29,986 nucleotides of DNA from the UHGV virus genome UHGV-0038722. One strand, given 5' to 3'. Numbering within the stretch: the first letter of the stretch is position 1; every line of letters begins with the position of its first letter. The position numbers and the translations under genes were made by a program. Source of the stretch: a virus. Under the pieces are notes generated by a model. It worked only from the letters and a program-made list of their open reading frames with translations. It did no database searches and was not told the origin of the DNA. This document shows positions 1 to 8,411 of the stretch, one piece after another.

Positions 1-698
1 GTTAATGTCACATCTCCTTTATCATTATAATTATAGAACAATGTATAACGCTCATTTATAGATTCAGAACCTGATGAGCCTCCTCTCCTCCACCACTCTG
101 CATTATCAAAAATAAGTAATCCTGGACCATAATATTTTCCCTTCTGACCCAAGATCATAGGAGTCGATAATCGCCACCTTCCCTCTGGAACATATACATC
201 GATCCCAGTTCTTTCTGCGTCTTTAAACGATTCATCACATAATAAAACACCACCTTCAACAGCACCAAATCCACGAACATCACCATTATCTCTCCATCGA
301 GCCATTTGCAACTCAGGATACTTCTTAGCGCCATCAATGTCTTCTAATTGGTCCCGCAGCTGATCAGGATCATACTTCAGTACATTAGGAAAATAGAACT
401 GCTGAGCACCGTAAGCATCATATACAGCCATAGAATGGCCTTGCACAGTTACGAACTTGGCAATCTGTCCGTTATATACAGGGTAACCAGCAGCGTTAAG
501 GATGATTGGTTGTGAAACAGGAATGTGAGAACCATCTTCACTCTCTACATAAACCTGAATCTGGTTTTCAGGATTTACCGGGTCAGTGTCAATTTTACCG
601 ATATAAATTTTGCCATTAGCTACGGCTTTAAAAGAGCGAGCCATAGTGAAGAGTTGCGATGGCATCCCAATTACAACATTTGGGGTTATATTAGGCAT
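1..698 (-). CDS. Tailspike protein, 5' part only (gene continues beyond window start); P22 gp9-like head-binding domain followed by divergent sequence
   Basis: Minus-strand frame open from ATG at 698 to position 1 (hand-translated, not in ORF track); N-terminus MPNITPNVV...[37 protein letters not shown]...[15 protein letters not shown]...NVLKYDPDQ matches P22 tailspike head-binding domain from memory; AGGA SD 8 nt upstream. Confidence 0.85.
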
Positions 699-1033
699 AT
701 TAGTCATCCTGTTTGAAAACTTAGAAATTGAATAAAAAGGAATGACTGTAGACAAAGATGCAAGTGTTTTGAAAAATAATCTTCTATTCATTTTAAATCA
801 TGCAACACAAAAAAACGATTATTTTACAACGAGCAAGAATCTTGATCAACAGACATATATTTTAATTGCTGAATACGTCACTTAAAAATGACAAGTACTA
901 CTTTTATTCCTATCGTCCATGATTTTAATTTTCAAATATTATTAAATAACAATTCCTATTTATAATGTCTGTCATTTAATTTGCTCCAGATACAAGGAAT
1001 GGCCGCAGCATGGCTACGGTGAATTTTGGGCAT

Positions 1034-1056
1034 AAAAAAACCCAGCCGAAGCTGGG
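1034..1056 (-). terminator. Rho-independent terminator downstream of ant
   Basis: Perfect hairpin cccagc-cgaa-gctggg (1041-1056) followed on the minus strand by a 7-nt T run (1034-1040). Confidence 0.75.
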
Positions 1057-1075
1057 TCGTTGCGTTGGTTATCTG

Positions 1076-1999
1076 TCAGTAGTTATGAACTGAAGGAGGT
1101 AATTCTTTATTCTTAAGTCTCATCCATGCGGAAAGATTCGTTGGTCCGTCTGGCTCATTGATATCAACATCTCGTGTGTGATTGATTAAAACGTCTCTTG
1201 CCATATCGATAATACGGGAGAACTCATAACCGCAGTCATGACATCTGCCGGAATAGTTCGATTGAATTTGTTTTAGTGCCGGATACAGTTCGCGGAATAA
1301 TGCCTGTGAGCGGTTGGCATAATCCCATAACCATACAAGGCTGTTTGCTTCTTTTGCAGAAAGCTCGTTTGCTTTCTTCTCTTGTTTGCCGATTAACTCG
1401 CCTTCAAGCGGAACGCGAGCTGCAAGTGACAGAGCTTCGGTAAACTGCTCATCGCTGATTTCTTTGTATGAACACCCAAAACGAGATTTCAGTGACGACC
1501 ACATGGTGATCATCGCCTTAGCCTGCTTTTCTTTTGGCAGAGACTGACCGCGACTCATGACGAGTTGTTTAATGGCTTCCTGCTGTTCAGTGGTGATTTT
1601 ACCCGGCAACGCCTTTTTAGCTTTGCGTGGGTTAACTACATGGCCTTTAGTCCAGTAGTCGTAGAGCACATCGTCACACTCTTCCTGATACTGGATTACC
1701 TTGTCGCGGATTTCAGGGCGGACTTTGTTAGGACTGATGCTGTTCAACCAAGCTGCCAATTTTCGTAAAGCCATACAAATCATGGCTTGCACCCCACCGG
1801 CAGAAGGTATGGTGATTTCCACCATACCCTTCGAGAAGCGTTGAGAAATCTTCTTATGTTGAGATTTCCAGTCTAGCCCCATTCCCTCAACGATAGGTTT
1901 CATTGGGGTATACGGTTCGCCGTTGTGATTGACAACATAAAGCTCTGCGCCGTGGAATGGTACATTGATAGTAGATACTGCTGTTGCTATACTTTTCAT
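1076..1999 (-). CDS. ant: Antirepressor Ant-like protein (AntA-type N-terminal domain, Cys-containing C-terminal region)
   Basis: 307-aa ORF; N-terminal region resembles AntA/Ant antirepressor domain; located after arc as in P22 immI; AGGAA SD upstream. Confidence 0.7.
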   Translation of the reverse strand: MKSIATAVSTINVPFHGAELYVVNHNGEPYTPMKPIVEGMGLDWKSQHKKISQRFSKGMVEITIPSAGGVQAMICMALRKLAAWLNSISPNKVRPEIRDKVIQYQEECDDVLYDYWTKGHVVNPRKAKKALPGKITTEQQEAIKQLVMSRGQSLPKEKQAKAMITMWSSLKSRFGCSYKEISDEQFTEALSLAARVPLEGELIGKQEKKANELSAKEANSLVWLWDYANRSQALFRELYPALKQIQSNYSGRCHDCGYEFSRIIDMARDVLINHTRDVDINEPDGPTNLSAWMRLKNKELPPSVHNY

Positions 2000-2066
2000 G
2001 TCGTTAATTCCTATGCGTGGTTTTACGATACCGAAGCCCTGACTGTTACCGCAGTTGGGGCTTCAA
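1997..2066 (+). ncRNA. Putative sar-like antisense RNA covering the ant start codon and RBS
   Basis: Plus-strand sigma70 promoter (-35 TTGATA 1965-1970, 17-bp spacer, -10 TATACT 1988-1993) firing antisense into ant start; hairpin 2033-2064 followed by U-rich stretch; architecture matches P22 sar (inference). Confidence 0.35.
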
Positions 2067-2266
2067 CTTTCTGCTCTATCAGTTATATCTTTCCCTTCAT
2101 ATACTTCACCTATATTGCTAATGCTGGCAGAACATCCAAGATGCTTGTATCTTATGATGTCCAACACGCAGTCACTACACAGCATCCGACCTGTTTCTTT
2201 AGAGTAAATGTATGTTTGATCAGCGTCTGATTCGCTAATGCCGCAGAAACAACATTCTTTACTCAT
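2063..2266 (-). CDS. Small cysteine-rich (zinc-ribbon-like) protein between arc and ant, unknown function
   Basis: 67-aa ORF with CCFCG...CSDC motifs; ATGA start/stop overlap with arc indicating translational coupling. Confidence 0.55.
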   Translation of the reverse strand: MSKECCFCGISESDADQTYIYSKETGRMLCSDCVLDIIRYKHLGCSASISNIGEVYEGKDITDRAES

Positions 2267-2403
2267 ACCGTTATCCCCTCTCTCTTCAGGCTGTCCATCA
2301 CCCGTTTAATTACTTCTGCACTAAATGAGCGACACTCTTCCTTTGCTTTCTCTTCAAGGATTTTTTCTAACTTCTCTGGCATACGCAGTGTTTTTACCTT
2401 CAT
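2263..2403 (-). CDS. arc: Arc-like ribbon-helix-helix repressor
   Basis: 46-aa ORF (below ORF-track size cutoff; hand-translated MKVKTLRMPEKLEKILEEKAKEECRSFSAEVIKRVMDSLKREGITV); resembles P22 Arc (RSVNSEIYQRVMESFKKEG); GGAGG SD; divergent from mnt. Confidence 0.75.
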   Translation of the reverse strand: MKVKTLRMPEKLEKILEEKAKEECRSFSAEVIKRVMDSLKREGITV

Positions 2404-2415
2404 TGCATCCTCCGT

Positions 2416-2480
2416 TGTATGTGGTACGCATACATAGTATTTAGGTACGCATTGATAGTCAATAGATACCTACATATCCT
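2416..2480. promoter_or_regulatory. Divergent overlapping promoters Pant (minus) and Pmnt (plus) with two operator-like inverted repeats
   Basis: Pant: -35 TTGACT (2457-2462) and -10 TACTAT (2434-2439) on minus strand, 17-bp spacer; Pmnt: -35 TTGATA (2452-2457), -10 TATCCT (2475-2480); inverted repeats tgtatg-N7-cataca (2416-2434) and attga-TAG-tcaat (2451-2463). Confidence 0.6.
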
Positions 2481-2508
2481 GTGGTAAAAAATTATTCAGG
2501 ATGTGCCG

Positions 2509-2760
2509 ATGTCTGATCGTAAGTACAAAAACCCTCAAGTGAATCTGAGGCTTCCTGTAGAGATAAAGGAGCGTCTTATTGAACTGGCTGAGGCTAATTC
2601 TCGTTCATTAAATGCTGAGATGGTCGCGGCACTTGAAGCGTGGACCGAAAAAAATAAACACATTCAAGCACTAGACCTTGCAACTATAGCATCACGATTG
2701 ATAGATCTTGAACGCGATGTTGAGACGCTAAAGACCATGTATGGTAAGGATGAAAAATGA
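2509..2760 (+). CDS. mnt: Mnt-like ribbon-helix-helix repressor
   Basis: RHH N-terminus (PQVNLRLPVEIKERLIELAEANSRSLNAEMVAAL) plus C-terminal helical region; divergent from arc as in P22 immI; ORF track starts at 2503, AGGA SD favours ATG 2509. Confidence 0.75.
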   Translation: MSDRKYKNPQVNLRLPVEIKERLIELAEANSRSLNAEMVAALEAWTEKNKHIQALDLATIASRLIDLERDVETLKTMYGKDEK

Positions 2761-3122
2761 GTGACAATTCAGGATACTCAGACGATCAACTGCGAGAGGC
2801 TGAATATCGCAAGGCGCTATCGTCTATAACTACAAAGGTTCTCGACTCTTTCTTGAGAGCTAAAGGTGTTCCAGACGAATGCCCAATGTGCGGGCAGTCT
2901 GAAATGGTTGTCCCTCAAGTTCAATTTGTAAATCAGGATAATGGAAAAGACATCATGGGTAGGCATGCCCATTATGGTGAATATATAAAAAACGAAGATG
3001 AATCATTCAACCCAATAAATTACTCTTATCATGTAATTTGCAAGCATTGCGGATACATTATGCAGTACAACACAGGTGTTGTGTTAAGCTGGTATCTAAG
3101 GGAGAAAAACAGCAATGTCTAA
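2757..3122 (+). CDS. Hypothetical zinc-ribbon protein, first gene of mnt-coupled accessory cassette
   Basis: 121-aa ORF; ATGA overlap with mnt stop; CPMCG and CKHCG motifs; no family recognised. Confidence 0.6.
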   Translation: MSDNSGYSDDQLREAEYRKALSSITTKVLDSFLRAKGVPDECPMCGQSEMVVPQVQFVNQDNGKDIMGRHAHYGEYIKNEDESFNPINYSYHVICKHCGYIMQYNTGVVLSWYLREKNSNV

Positions 3123-3450
3123 GTTGAAGTTGGCTTACGATGCTGACAATCCTTTTCCGAATAGCGAATTTGCCCCCATCGGAATTGAAGACTCAGAAGA
3201 GCCAGCACATGGAGGTGGCAATGGAGGAGGATCAGATATGAACAGTAGAATGACCCGCATTGAAACGATTGCCGCCAACCAAGAAAAGCTAATATCAGAA
3301 ACTAGAAAAGAGTTGATTGGCATCCGTGGCGACATGCACGGAATGGAGCGTCGCCTAGCAGATAAGATGGACGAGAATCAGAAGTGGCTTATCGCCCTCA
3401 TGATATCTGCAATCCTTGCTCCGCTGTTTATTGCCTTGGTTACCAAATAG
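3115..3450 (+). CDS. Hypothetical tail-anchored membrane protein (C-terminal TM helix)
   Basis: 111-aa ORF overlapping upstream gene by 8 nt; GGGAG SD; Gly-rich linker GGGNGGG; hydrophobic C-terminus WLIALMISAILAPLFIALV. Confidence 0.6.
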   Translation: MSKLKLAYDADNPFPNSEFAPIGIEDSEEPAHGGGNGGGSDMNSRMTRIETIAANQEKLISETRKELIGIRGDMHGMERRLADKMDENQKWLIALMISAILAPLFIALVTK

Positions 3451-3471
3451 CTACTAACTAAGGAGATTTGT

Positions 3472-3795
3472 GTGTATACAACAGTTATCGTGATAGCTAT
3501 CGCACTCATTGTGGTTCAGTACCAACTGGCATCTTTAAAACAAAAGATATCTGACCTCAAGACTGAGAACGAAGCACTTAAAAACTCAATAAAAGATGAG
3601 AAGAACAAACTATCATTCACTATATCTGATATTGAGCAATCCATTGAAATTATTGAGAATAATATTAACAGACTAAAAAAAGAAGATATTCATGAAATCA
3701 ATGACAATATCAAGGATTTGAAATCTTGGCTTAGGAATGTAGGACAAATCGCCACATCAACACGAGATAAGCTCAATCCATCCATGGATGATTAA
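3472..3795 (+). CDS. Hypothetical membrane-anchored coiled-coil protein (N-terminal TM helix)
   Basis: 107-aa ORF, GTG start with AGGAG SD 6 nt upstream; N-terminal TM YTTVIVIAIALIVV then K/E/N-rich heptad-like sequence; strongly AT-rich. Confidence 0.55.
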   Translation: MYTTVIVIAIALIVVQYQLASLKQKISDLKTENEALKNSIKDEKNKLSFTISDIEQSIEIIENNINRLKKEDIHEINDNIKDLKSWLRNVGQIATSTRDKLNPSMDD

Positions 3796-5922
3796 TTACT
3801 CCTGTGCTATTCCGCTTAGCGACGCTACAATGCCAGCCCTCGCTAAGCGATTGAACTCTTCGTTTCCAACTGCATCACGTATTGCTTTTACGGCGGCTTT
3901 ATTTGCCATAAATCTGCGTTCCGCCGCCGCTAATGCTTCTTTACTTCCGCCAGCTCTTACTGCTTTCGTGGCTTCCTGAACTGCTTTCTCTATCGCATAT
4001 CGACCGCTACGCGTGGTGGCAATTTTAGATACAGCACCTTTTAACCCGGCGCCAACTAAAGCACCCGCGGCAGCGCCTGCAATACCCCCTCCAGCGCCAC
4101 CAACAATGGCACCTGATGTTGAGTTGGCAATTGCATTTAACACTGTTGATGTGACGTTGGATAAACCAGCATCCAGATCGCGTAGTACATTGGCAGTTCT
4201 CCCTGTTCTTTCAATATACTGCTGAGGTTTCACTGCCGCTCTTGCAAGAGTGCCATATGCATCAGCAATTCTTCCGAGATCTGAGGAATATCTGCTAATG
4301 GCTTTTACATTTTGTGGGGTAAGTATCCCTGCGATATGGTTAATTCCTGCTGCATCAGCTTTGCCACCACGTACACCATGCGAGATAGCATCTTGCAACA
4401 TTGATGATATAGCAGGAACACGCTCTGATTCTGGCAGCGCGCGGATCATAGAATGGAACCCAGCAGGACCATTAAGACCTTTAGCTGACGATGATTGAAG
4501 GGATTTTACTCCATTCGTAATCAGTGCATCTGTTGCCAAATCACGCCCGAAAACAGACTCTGCACTCTCTTGTGCTGATAACCTCGCTTTAGACAGATCA
4601 TTAGCTTTCTGCCAGTCATCAAGAAATCCGCCGTTTTCCGCCATTGTGCGCATATCATCAGTAATTGCCCGGCGTATTTCCCCTGCTCTCCTTGCCGCAT
4701 TTGCCTCTCCGCTACGCTTATATTTTTGCTCCGCATCAGCAAATTTCGCTCTCCATGCTTTCATGCCATCAAATGTTACTCCACCTTGATTGTTTGCCTG
4801 AACAAACTGTTTCATTTCAGGAGTAAGTGGTATGCCAGCAGATCGCTCTGCCTGAATAACGGCATTACCATTTAGCATTCTTGCTTTTTGATTTGGCATT
4901 GTTGACCGCACGTCATCCCATGCCGCGCGCTCGGCATCCTTCATCTGATCAAGATTTTGAAGAATCCTTTGTTTTATAGCCGCACTTTTTTCTGATGCCG
5001 TTCCAGATGCGGCCCCAAATTCATCAAGGTTTCGACTTAACTTTGATGATATTTCGTTAAATGCTGCCTGATGGGCGTCCTGAACAATTCCTGGTGTTGA
5101 TGCCAATGCGCCTTCAGCTTGTGCAATTCCACGACTTCCAGATCGCATTCCTGGTGTTAATGCGTTTATATCAATTCCAGCAGACTCAGCCGCTTTTGCT
5201 ACATCTTCGGACACATTAGCGGCCTGACTGGCAATTGACTGACGCCCAGCACCTGACTTTGCCATCCTGGAAACATCATTAGCAGAATTCAGTGCTGCAC
5301 CACCAAGAGCCTGTGAAACCCTTGGCGCAATAACGCGCCCGACACCTGAAAGAACGCCTTGAGCACCAATATTGATACCACCGTTAATGGCAGCATTTTG
5401 TGCAAAATCGCCCTCCTGATTTGCAGCATCAGCAAGAGAACCTGCAATCATGTTTCCTGCGGAACCGATATCTCCAGCGAGCTTTGCTGGCGCTCCAGCA
5501 GCTTTTGCCGCTGTGCCAATTGGCAGGAGATACCCACCAATTGTTTCACCGGCTTGCGCGTAAGGGTCTGTCGGTCGATCGACTGGACGATAGACATCAT
5601 CCAATACTTTTGGCCCACCAAGCCCCTGACTGATTGCATTAATCAGACTTGCGCCACCCTGCAATACGTCAAATGGTATGTTTACCAGACCACGACCAGC
5701 CTGTTCTGCAATTTGCCCTGCACTTTGACCACCAGTGAGCCAATCGCCAGCTTGTTGCATCAATGATGGTTCTTCACGCGCTGGTTCATTATTGGCCTGA
5801 TTAACTGTTTGTTGCTGAACAGCCTGACCAGCAAAATACTCATCAATGGCGGTGCCAATATCTTCCGTGCTCGTACCATCAGGGAAGGTAAATGTCTTTC
5901 CGTTTGCAGTTACTTTCATCAT
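3796..5922 (-). CDS. Ejection (injection) protein, P22 gp16-like
   Basis: 708-aa ORF, Gly/Ala-rich; last of gp7-gp20-gp16 triad by position and N-terminal similarity to P22 gp16. Confidence 0.75.
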
Positions 5923-7250
5923 TCCACCGTAAATTGAATGCCTGATTTTGAGGTATATGATCCGGATTGACTCTGCTGCTGTTGGGTATTTGTCGGTTGT
6001 TGGTTATTGCTCTGTTGTTGCGCAGGCTGCTGAATATCTTCATACAGCTTGGCTTTTCTGGATTGCAATTGCTTAGTTAGTCCGCTGGGGAGAGAATCTC
6101 CATAAGTTGAAAGATAATCATCCATTTGCTGGTTAAACTTTTCGCCTTCAGTATTTGCCATCAGTTTTGAGGTGTTGATTAAGTCTTGGACTTGCTCATT
6201 ATTCAGCATCTTGCCGTTAGATAATTGGCTAACATAGTTACCAAGTGTGCCAAATATTCCATCAGTGCGTTTTACCTGCACTTGCTCACCTTCGCGTACC
6301 ACAGATTGCGGATCCAGCGATTTCATATAGTTGAAAATCATTCCCAACTGCGCGGCTGGAGTGTTGCGCTTCCCAAGGGCTTGTAGGTTGTCAGAAGCAC
6401 TGCGCATTGCAGAATAATTCTTTGAGAACCCATTAATATCACTATTCAGATCTCGAACAAGTTTTGGGTCAATCTTTCCGCTTTCCTGTTGTTTCATCCC
6501 TAATTCCTGCAACTTCAGGGCTACGTTATCATTATGCATTTGTGCCCGCTGAGCCCTGTCTAGTTGAGCGTTTTGGATATTTGCCCATCCTCTCGCGTTC
6601 TCCATGTCAGCCTGACGGATGCTTTCATCCAATCGCCCTTTCTCAAGTTGGCGACCAACCATCTTATCCTGATAATCCAGCATTTTATCCGGACCAACAG
6701 CCCCTAGCGTCATAGTAGTCAGCATGTGTGATAGCTGCTCTGGATTCTGAATACCTGTCTGAATCATCCAGTCAGCATTCGCCCCCACGCGATTTAACCT
6801 GTCCTTGTTGTCAGTAATGAATTTACTGTAGGCTTCCGGTCCCTGAGAAAGAGCGACGTTAGCCCTCATGGCTAAATCGCCCATATCGTTGCGTTGCTGC
6901 TCATTAAGACCGGAAAACGCCTGTTGTGCCTGCGCAACAAACGCTGGATTTTCCTTGGCAAACTTAAATAGTCCCGATGGATCACCAGAAGCCCATGCAT
7001 CAGCATGAACCTTATTGAACGCATTAATCGCTTTCTGTTGCTGTTCCTGCTTATAAATATCAGCAACTCCAGCCAGACCACGTAACGCGGTCAGACCAAC
7101 GTTATTTGCACCTGAGCGAGCCAGTTCATTGTTTTCGCGGATCAGACCAAGCGTTGCGTTAATGTCGCTTGCCTTTGGCGCATTCTCATTTTGCGTACCG
7201 ATGCCAGCCAGAAAACCACCAGAATTAATACCCTGTTGCCACGTAGCCAT
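5919..7250 (-). CDS. Ejection protein, P22 gp20-like
   Basis: 443-aa ORF between gp7-like and gp16-like genes; Q-rich C-terminus; overlaps gp16 start by 4 nt. Confidence 0.75.
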
Positions 7251-7260
7251 TGATTAACCC

Positions 7261-7953
7261 TTAAAACAGTGAACCAAGCAGACCAAGACCAGCACCAATA
7301 CCAGCACCCCACGGAGTTGATAGCTCGAGAGCACTGGCTATGCCACCACCCAAAAGCGCACCGGATGCAGCACCACTAACCCCCTGCTGCAATGCTGACG
7401 GTCGGTTGGCGTTTGCCGCAGCCAGCGCCGCGCTTTGCTGTGAAATCTGACTCATGTTGTTGGCATATGTTTGCCCGGCGTTTGTCTGCCCCTGAAGAGC
7501 GCCAAGACCGATATTTGCCAGGTTGTTGTAATTGTTCATTTGTCCAGATAGCCATTGCTGACCAAGCGTTGGTGCGATTGTTGCTAACTGATTACTGGTT
7601 GCGGTGGAACCCAATCCACCTGTTGCTTCCGCTGCCGCCAGACTCTGATAGCGAGCCTGACCTGCAAGGTCTTTATACTGCTGAGAGTTGTAATACTGGT
7701 TAAGTGCCTGACCTTGCCCATCCAGAGACGATAAGTTCTCGAGGCTGCCGACATACTTCTCAGCCAGAGGAGTAAACGGCTTCAGGTTATTCATGATGGT
7801 GTTGAACTGCTGATTTTGCAGGTCTGCGGCATACTTCTGAGCTTCTGCGGCATACTTTGCACTTTTATCAGAACTGCCACCTTTCCCGCCTTTTTCAGGG
7901 CAATAAGGTTCCTCGCCGCGCAGTTTTCTGCCCAGCTTAAATGCATATAACAT
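7261..7953 (-). CDS. Ejection protein, P22 gp7-like
   Basis: 230-aa ORF; N-terminus MLYAFKLGRKLRGEEPYCPEKGGKGGSS and length match P22 gp7 from memory. Confidence 0.8.
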   Translation of the reverse strand: MLYAFKLGRKLRGEEPYCPEKGGKGGSSDKSAKYAAEAQKYAADLQNQQFNTIMNNLKPFTPLAEKYVGSLENLSSLDGQGQALNQYYNSQQYKDLAGQARYQSLAAAEATGGLGSTATSNQLATIAPTLGQQWLSGQMNNYNNLANIGLGALQGQTNAGQTYANNMSQISQQSAALAAANANRPSALQQGVSGAASGALLGGGIASALELSTPWGAGIGAGLGLLGSLF

Positions 7954-7955
7954 GG

Positions 7956-8411
7956 CTATCTCCCGTGATTCAGGAAGTCGATTAGTTCTTCGCGTGTAGC
8001 ACTGTAAAATGTCACGTCATCCACGCCTTTGAAGTATTTCTTGATGGTTCCTACACGCTTAAGGCCAATCATTGCGCAGTACATCTGCCCGTGGCGGAAT
8101 TTGCGTGCAGCGAACGATGTGACGCACTGAACGGTGGTGTTAGTCAGAATGTATCGCCAGAACGCCAGCCCGATTTCCTTGCTGAAGCCGCGAATCTCTG
8201 GCAGGTACATGGCGTGGCAATCAAAGGTCAGCGGCTGAATCTCCTGATAGTAAACAATGCCGCCGAACTGCCCGTGCACGCTCACCTCAAAGTAACGGCA
8301 TTCAGGTTTGTAGTCGTATCCATCGCCGTTGTTGCTACCGGCGATAATGTCAGGGTGATTTCCTACTGCTTCGATCAGGTCGATGTTTCGCGTTGGTTTG
8401 AATGTAATCAT
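7956..8411 (-). CDS. P22 gp14-like virion assembly/ejection-associated protein
   Basis: 151-aa ORF at the gene-14 position between tail needle and gp7; assignment by position. Confidence 0.5.
   Translation of the reverse strand: MITFKPTRNIDLIEAVGNHPDIIAGSNNGDGYDYKPECRYFEVSVHGQFGGIVYYQEIQPLTFDCHAMYLPEIRGFSKEIGLAFWRYILTNTTVQCVTSFAARKFRHGQMYCAMIGLKRVGTIKKYFKGVDDVTFYSATREELIDFLNHGR

Follow-up and report, generated by a model that had tools for sequence, protein, structure and literature searches.

The first 698 nucleotides of the DNA stretch analysed here (UHGV virus genome UHGV-0038722; 29,986 nt, referred to as a whole as the window) contain the start of a tailspike gene with a head-binding domain of the P22 type, followed by sequence that had not been recognised in an earlier note on this DNA. 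Two questions arise: what kind of module follows the head-binding domain, and which surface structure of the host does it recognise? The gene is read leftward to the edge of the window, and its features are collected with those of the neighbouring region in Table 1. The start codon agrees with the RefSeq annotation of WP_021527227.1, a protein that is the same over the 232 residues encoded in the window. No clear sign of a foreign origin was seen when the GC content of the tailspike gene (41.8%) and its modules (37–46%) was compared with that of the window (47.8%).

Table 1. Tailspike gene, its modules and the adjacent immI region in the window (nucleotide positions; codons counted from the tailspike ATG).
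Feature	Position	Strand	Basis or remark
Shine-Dalgarno AGGA of tailspike gene	707..710	-	8-nt spacer to ATG; read from sequence
Tailspike gene	ATG 698-696, leftward to base 1 (window edge)	-	232 codons read
P22-type head-binding (virion-attachment) domain, codons 1-113	360..698	-	Pfam PF09008, gp9 identity, PDB matches
DPDQ hinge	360-371		end of head-binding domain
Linker/neck module, codons 114-145 (32 residues)	264..359	-	predicted alpha-helical
Domain D1, first ~55% of ~155 aa, codons 146-232	1..263	-	beta-rich in model; cut by window edge
Most conserved D1 motif, codons 198-212 (15 residues)	63..107	-	candidate functional site
Intrinsic terminator	1039..1058	-	after ant, upstream of tailspike gene; 8-bp GC-rich stem and T run
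ant	1076-1999		P22_AR_N and P22_AR_C
sar antisense RNA	2001-2068	+	Rfam RF00262, 85.7 bits; directly upstream of ant start, as in P22 immI
Arc-family gene	2503-2760		left flank of three-ORF cassette
Three small ORFs	2757-3795	+	one orientation; where P22 has sieA and mnt
gp16-type gene	3796-5922		right flank of three-ORF cassette

The window holds the 5' 29% of the gene. The earlier note had proposed to obtain the complete gene from upstream of the window; it was indeed recovered from public contigs (792 aa), and the missing portion proved to be the 3' end, encoding the C-terminus, to the left of the window. An exact-sequence look-up of the Ant protein of the window led to two contigs, L011 and L012, that are 100% identical to positions 1–7999 and 1–2374 of the window, respectively. 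L012 contains the whole 792-aa tailspike ORF, followed by dacD, sbmC and yeeA, and its product differs by three residues from WP_021527227.1 of Escherichia coli ZH063. The ZH063 gene itself has one mismatch to the window in 698 nt, and its protein is the same over all 232 residues. Statements below on the protein past residue 232 (232/792 residues lie within the window) were therefore taken from identical or near-identical public contigs. A reading of the gene as a pseudogene or prophage remnant was rejected because L010, L012, ZH063, AH19B041 and CH4794 all have an uninterrupted ORF; the ZH063 prophage, with a full P22-like gene set, further opposes it.

The genomic context is that of a P22-type tailspike. 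The gene occupies the place of the last late gene, as does gene 9 of P22, after genes of the P22 ejection-protein type (gp7/gp20/gp16) and an immI region with arc, sar, ant and a terminator; a terminator is annotated at the homologous place in HK620, epsilon34 and P22. By domain matches, immI of the window contains two Arc-family genes. Positions 360–6000, covering immI and the ejection genes, are 97–98% identical to prophages that have other tailspike receptor modules and reside in unrelated strains of chicken, pig, water and human origin. The combination of this backbone with the receptor module of the window was found in no complete genome of the E. coli set searched. Between immI and the gp16-type gene lie three small ORFs for which no Pfam match above threshold was obtained. 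Their products are a protein of 121 aa with two CxxC pairs (zinc-ribbon-like), one of 111 aa with a transmembrane segment at its C-terminus, and one of 107 aa with an N-terminal transmembrane segment and a coiled coil; together they may be a superinfection-exclusion or defence cassette expressed from the prophage.

The head-binding part and its abrupt end were established by several comparisons. Residues 1–113 match the Head_binding profile PF09008 over its full length (profile positions 1–113 of 113, E = 1e-64, 216 bits, cutoff 24), are identical to P22 gp9 at 79/113 positions (70%) without gaps and, extended to residue 117, match the solved head-binding structures of P22 and Sf6 (PDB 7sg7, 8tvr and 1lkt). 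The resemblance of the first ~110 residues to gp9 described in the earlier note is thus borne out, and the 37 residues that it quoted after DPDQ are exactly what the frame encodes. Could the protein nonetheless be an ordinary gp9-like endorhamnosidase, its sequence merely misremembered in the note? The 70% identity of the N-terminal 113 residues is what speaks for this, but the identity ends at the hinge: over residues 114–232 ungapped identity to gp9 is 3/119 (2.5%), BLASTP past the hinge yields no further segment but just an extension with 16% gaps and low identity, the P22-tail Pfam family has no match in the protein, and PDB matches to the P22 tailspike stop at residue ~117. P22-like identity throughout, which would have overturned the note, is not seen in this comparison, and the pattern described in the note goes far beyond chance. 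The low identity past the hinge and the end of the PDB matches at ~117 refute a gp9-like endorhamnosidase, which we regard as having next to no chance of being correct.

Nucleotide comparisons place the boundaries of the exchanged segments. In a megablast search of the first 1,100 bases of the window against 50,697 phage records, 81 records matched. Most of the Lederbergvirus tailspike genes listed (HK620, Sf6, epsilon34, IME10 and others) are 87–95% identical and their match stops at base 360, where about 70 Lederbergvirus records besides HK620, Sf6 and epsilon34 lose nucleotide similarity. Past this base only CUS-3, Gally and 683R2 keep matching, to bases 277–294, so that a short second module (bases 277–359) is common to these three phages, and bases 1–276 have no nucleotide match in the 50,697 records. 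From the breakpoints at 360 and ~277–294 we conclude that the gene was assembled from at least three cassettes, namely anchor, linker and receptor module, which supports the domain-swap reading of the earlier note; base 360 falls at the DPDQ codons. Module exchange at the DPDQ hinge is normal phage mosaicism, the textbook host change of P22-like phages, and involves no new mechanism. The linker, for which the AlphaFold model has helices at residues 112–145, is itself widely shared. Directly behind DPDQ, 38 residues show 71% identity to the corresponding part of annotated K5 lyase genes; the linker also occurs in endosialidases and in fibre proteins of Kayfunavirus and Justusliebigvirus, stands behind other N-terminal anchors in homologues, and matches residues 213–258 of PDB 9vvr_A.

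The architecture of the receptor module was examined with an AlphaFold model of the monomer (99 homologues in the alignment, mean pLDDT 84.6, >90 for residues 140–450), in which the trimer is not represented. The model has, in order, the head-binding domain, the linker helices, a beta-rich domain (D1, ~146–300), a shaft (~305–620) and, at the C-terminus, a mixed alpha/beta domain whose last element is a long helix. The protein matches PHROG 4636, 'tail spike protein', with E = 1.6e-232 (775 bits), and Pfam and NCBIfam recognise no catalytic domain in the 792-aa protein. D1 has no Pfam match even at E ≤ 10 and none in NCBIfam. Pectate_lyase_3 (PF12708) likewise has no match at E ≤ 10, whether the whole protein or D1 alone is searched, so that assignment as a depolymerase of this type is not supported, whereas PF12708 is matched by many homologues, among them those that begin with the canonical DFGAxGDGxTDD. 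A profile of the homologues matches just the N-terminal 60–75 residues of beta-helix proteins of the pectate-lyase-3 type (phi29 gp12, Sf6 tailspike, phiAB6), and D1 is modelled with long strands typical of a sandwich and not with helix rungs. Conservation along the mature part of the protein is fairly even, with no hypervariable patch seen. It peaks immediately ahead of the cleavage site and in the block 191–210 (mean identity of this block 85% among close and 54% among distant homologues). Nine residues of the D1 motif (F, D, A, E, R, G, G, S and G) are invariant in a 13-sequence alignment.

The shaft is built from a 17-aa repeat (GxxNTAxGxxALxxxTx) that occurs about 18 times, with invariant glycines 16–18 residues apart; in the model there is one short strand per ~17 residues from ~305 to 620, and the repeats are predicted to form a beta-solenoid. 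No Pfam family matches the repeat region even at E ≤ 10, nor does any in NCBIfam. Foldseek searches of the PDB with the full model were dominated by head-binding matches, and a cropped model, built from the 13-sequence alignment, was less confident (pLDDT 70). With the cropped model, no solved structure matched the shaft below 1e-3 (best E 0.016). CbpF was matched weakly (E = 4.5e-4 with the full model; 0.029 and probability 0.92 with the cropped one), YadA with probability 0.6, and TM-scores of the CbpF and YadA matches were ≤0.32. Predicted viral structures gave 75 matches below 1e-3; proteins with an S74/ICA domain, the tail spike of Bacillus phage Mater, and proteins labelled 'Chlorovirus glyco repeat' or 'FhaB-like' are among them. 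The shaft fold is thus described exclusively from predictions and these BFVD matches.

The C-terminal 165 aa of the L012 gene product, outside the window, match Peptidase_S74 (PF13884) when searched by themselves (24.9 bits, cutoff 22, E = 2.5e-5) and fall below the cutoff when scored within the full-length protein (19.5 bits); many homologues carry a precomputed PF13884 assignment. At the start of this domain stands S630-DARD-K635, an S-D-x-R-x-K motif, which we take to be the Ser-Lys dyad of endosialidase-type intramolecular chaperones. R629, D631, D634 and K635 do not vary among the 99 homologues, in which S630 is at least 90% conserved.

The distribution of the module was determined with a full-length homologue as the query, because the 119 window residues after DPDQ retrieved one 76-aa fragment. 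A large protein collection contained 2,039 relatives, the closer of which keep a core of 154 + 329 + ~150 aa behind N-terminal anchors of 0–310 aa; the anchors are of the P22 (PF09008), CBA120 (PF18668) or T7 (PF03906) type, with two alternative linkers. In prophages of Plesiomonas, Chimaeribacter and Yokenella, the module is 57–77% identical and stands behind different anchors. The 90% cluster comprises 201 member sequences. A tblastn search with residues 140–792 found no enterobacterial phage with the receptor module among the 50,697 phage records; the best matches were Bacillus phages (30–37% identity over 410–535 aa, in the repeats and chaperone). Of 5,426 complete E. coli genomes, 18 contained receptor-module DNA, each at 99% identity or more. 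In the ZH063 group it is part of a complete P22-like prophage of 39.6 kb that lacks gtr genes and is located between dacD and sbcB; in AH19B041 and in CH4794 it lies at argW/intS, with different neighbours in the two strains. The backbone of the window is a fourth, which brings the number of distinct P22-like backbones with this module to at least four. A further E. coli family member (P0037) is 43% identical and has the head-binding domain; its receptor module was found in just one complete genome (ECONIH5). Neither this receptor module nor any O25b-specific tailspike was described in the literature searched, absence from which is no proof.

Which receptor the module recognises was approached through its hosts. 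The earlier note had considered the specificity to be probably different from that of P22 and not deducible from the window. The first statement is supported, no part of the P22 endorhamnosidase domain being present. The second stands in part: the 360 nt of the new domain within the window identify a public gene whose carriers point to O25, and this is an association, not a demonstrated specificity. The rfb cluster of ZH063, AH19B041 and CH4794 is the same and encodes an 'O25 family O-antigen flippase', and SaT040, CU568-3 (labelled O25:H4) and S21EC have an identical O25 wzx gene. O25 wzx was therefore present in 6/6 carriers checked (of 18), against a background of 459/5,426 (8.5%). The capsule loci of the three carriers checked were of two different kinds: kps region 2 of ZH063 contains the K5 genes kfiA/C/D, and that of CH4794 and AH19B041 contains genes for a HAD-IA hydrolase and a TPR protein and no kfi genes. 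Since the capsule loci differ while the O25 rfb cluster is shared, the O25 O-antigen is favoured over a K antigen. On this correlational host association, the receptor is most likely the O25 (ST131-type O25b) O-antigen. O25 is the O type of ST131, a multidrug-resistant, pandemic clone. As the carriers probably all belong to the ST131 lineage, they do not count as independent hosts; a prophage may also no longer be able to infect the strain in which it resides.

Two other receptors have to be weighed against O25. One is a group 2 capsule such as K5 heparosan, which would parallel the K1 specificity of CUS-3. The linker with its 71% identity, over 38 aa, to the corresponding stretch of annotated K5 lyase genes, the DNA shared with the CUS-3 endosialidase gene, the kfiA/C/D genes of ZH063 and the S74 chaperone at the C-terminus, as in endosialidases and K5 lyase, would all fit such a target. 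However, the likeness to K5 lyases and endosialidases is confined to the ~38-aa linker, tblastn of residues 140–792 finds no coliphage lyase or sialidase, and a module at least 99% identical is present in CH4794 and AH19B041, where kps region 2 is another one, whereas the O25 rfb cluster is common to these two strains and ZH063. We consider a capsule target quite improbable.

In the other reading, the module would be a general adhesin without enzymatic activity, directed at something conserved on the cell surface (LPS core, outer-membrane protein or another conserved glycan), and the restriction to O25 would be due to the clonal spread of ST131. Conservation that is even across genera, with no sharply hypervariable segment, is atypical of serotype-specific spikes, and because the module is strongly conserved in other genera, a conserved receptor stays in play. 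The high identity (57–77%) over several genera behind different anchors, the weak resemblance of the shaft to the heads of trimeric autotransporter adhesins (CbpF, YadA) and the lack of a detectable catalytic family are all in line with an adhesin. A conserved receptor predicts carriage in many serogroups, however, and the module is found in 18/5,426 genomes, with O25 in every one of the six carriers checked against 8.5% in the background and in at least three independently integrated prophages. Moreover, all characterised P22-like spikes bind surface polysaccharide (PMC11990801). A conserved receptor thus appears unlikely, and the O25 O-antigen is retained as the preferred target.

Taken together, it seems reasonably probable that the window derives from a P22-like (Lederbergvirus-type) E. 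coli prophage integrated by dacD and encoding a modular trimeric spike with a new receptor module that targets O25. Residues 1–113, which belong to the P22 head-binding family, would dock the spike on the gp4/gp10 tail hub, as suggested by the family and by the solved P22 and Sf6 complexes. The helical linker of ~32 aa, similar to those of other spikes and fibres, may serve as the hinge and as the splice point for module exchange. In the receptor module, Pfam, the dyad motif and structure prediction show a beta domain of ~155 aa, then the shaft with its ~18 repeats, and finally an S74 chaperone. By analogy with its family, the chaperone would nucleate trimer folding and then cleave itself off at Ser630 through Ser630-Lys635. 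Judging from the host association, the mature spike would bind the O25 (O25b) O-antigen, and at the glycan it may act by binding only, or D1 may carry an unrecognised activity such as cleavage or deacetylation.

Comparison with known systems sets the protein apart past its anchor. P22 gp9, Sf6 gp14 and the HK620 tailspike share with it the PF09008 domain, the DPDQ hinge and the gene position, but are right-handed parallel beta-helix endoglycosidases without a cleavable chaperone, and the window protein differs from them throughout after residue 113. The K1-specific, P22-like phage CUS-3 likewise combines a P22 head-binding domain with a non-P22 receptor module and shares the linker to base 277. 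Its endosialidase also ends in a self-cleaving S74 chaperone, and it is a precedent for a non-beta-helix module with a chaperone on a P22 anchor. The CUS-3 module, however, is a sialidase beta-propeller that past the linker has nothing in common with the window protein, and the hosts of the module described here have no one common capsule type. The PHROG 4636 spikes of Bacillus phages (Mater, the top Foldseek match among viral models, and SPO1 gp2.52) have the same repeat shaft and S74 domain, but their hosts are Gram-positive, their N-terminal anchors are others and D1 is shared in part only; no characterisation of the receptors of these relatives was found. The heads of YadA and Fusobacterium nucleatum CbpF, like the shaft, have short Gly/Asn/Ala-rich repeats of the (G)xxNTAxG type, which fold into a beta-roll or solenoid in these heads, but their repeats are ~14 aa long and not 17 aa, the Foldseek scores are marginal, and the Pfam families YadA_head and Hep_Hag have no match in the 792-aa protein. 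The likeness to trimeric autotransporter adhesins is best described as a resemblance.

The value of the locus lies in the module, which is absent from the enterobacterial phage isolates searched, has no solved structure or characterised relative, and in E. coli appears restricted to prophages of O25 strains (6 of 18 carriers checked). If O25b specificity is confirmed, the spike could provide a recognition reagent for typing, capture, and engineered phages and tailocins, and would be an example of a podovirus in which a fibre-like, chaperone-dependent module replaces the beta-helix depolymerase. The bolder proposal would be that this is the first non-beta-helix, repeat-shaft, O25b-specific spike of a P22-like podovirus, and that it either lacks a depolymerase or has in D1 a new glycan-modifying enzyme; we hold this to be a speculative and rather doubtful extension. 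Were it true and were there no depolymerase, the phage would have to cross the O-antigen layer otherwise than in the P22 paradigm.

Several further observations were made around the surface-antigen loci of the carriers. In ZH063 (region NZ_CP014522.1 2218392-2287675) the prophage lies ~17 kb from gnd, and its tailspike gene ~55 kb from the O25 rfb cluster; because of this proximity large recombination events could move the spike gene and rfb together. One CDS of the O25 rfb cluster is annotated as 'frameshifted' in ZH063, AH19B041 and CH4794 (L004:11467-12529, L008:3887-4949 and L009:30332-31394). By its position it could be the O-antigen polymerase, and the frameshift may be an annotation artefact or real and conserved. 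In kps region 2 of ZH063, a frameshifted IS481-family transposase lies between kfiC and the next gene (L014:11968-13002), and K5 expression may be impaired by this insertion. In AH19B041 (NZ_CP196316.1 ~1-62000; L017, L018:1-6947), a large SPI-7-type integrative conjugative element stands directly upstream of kps.
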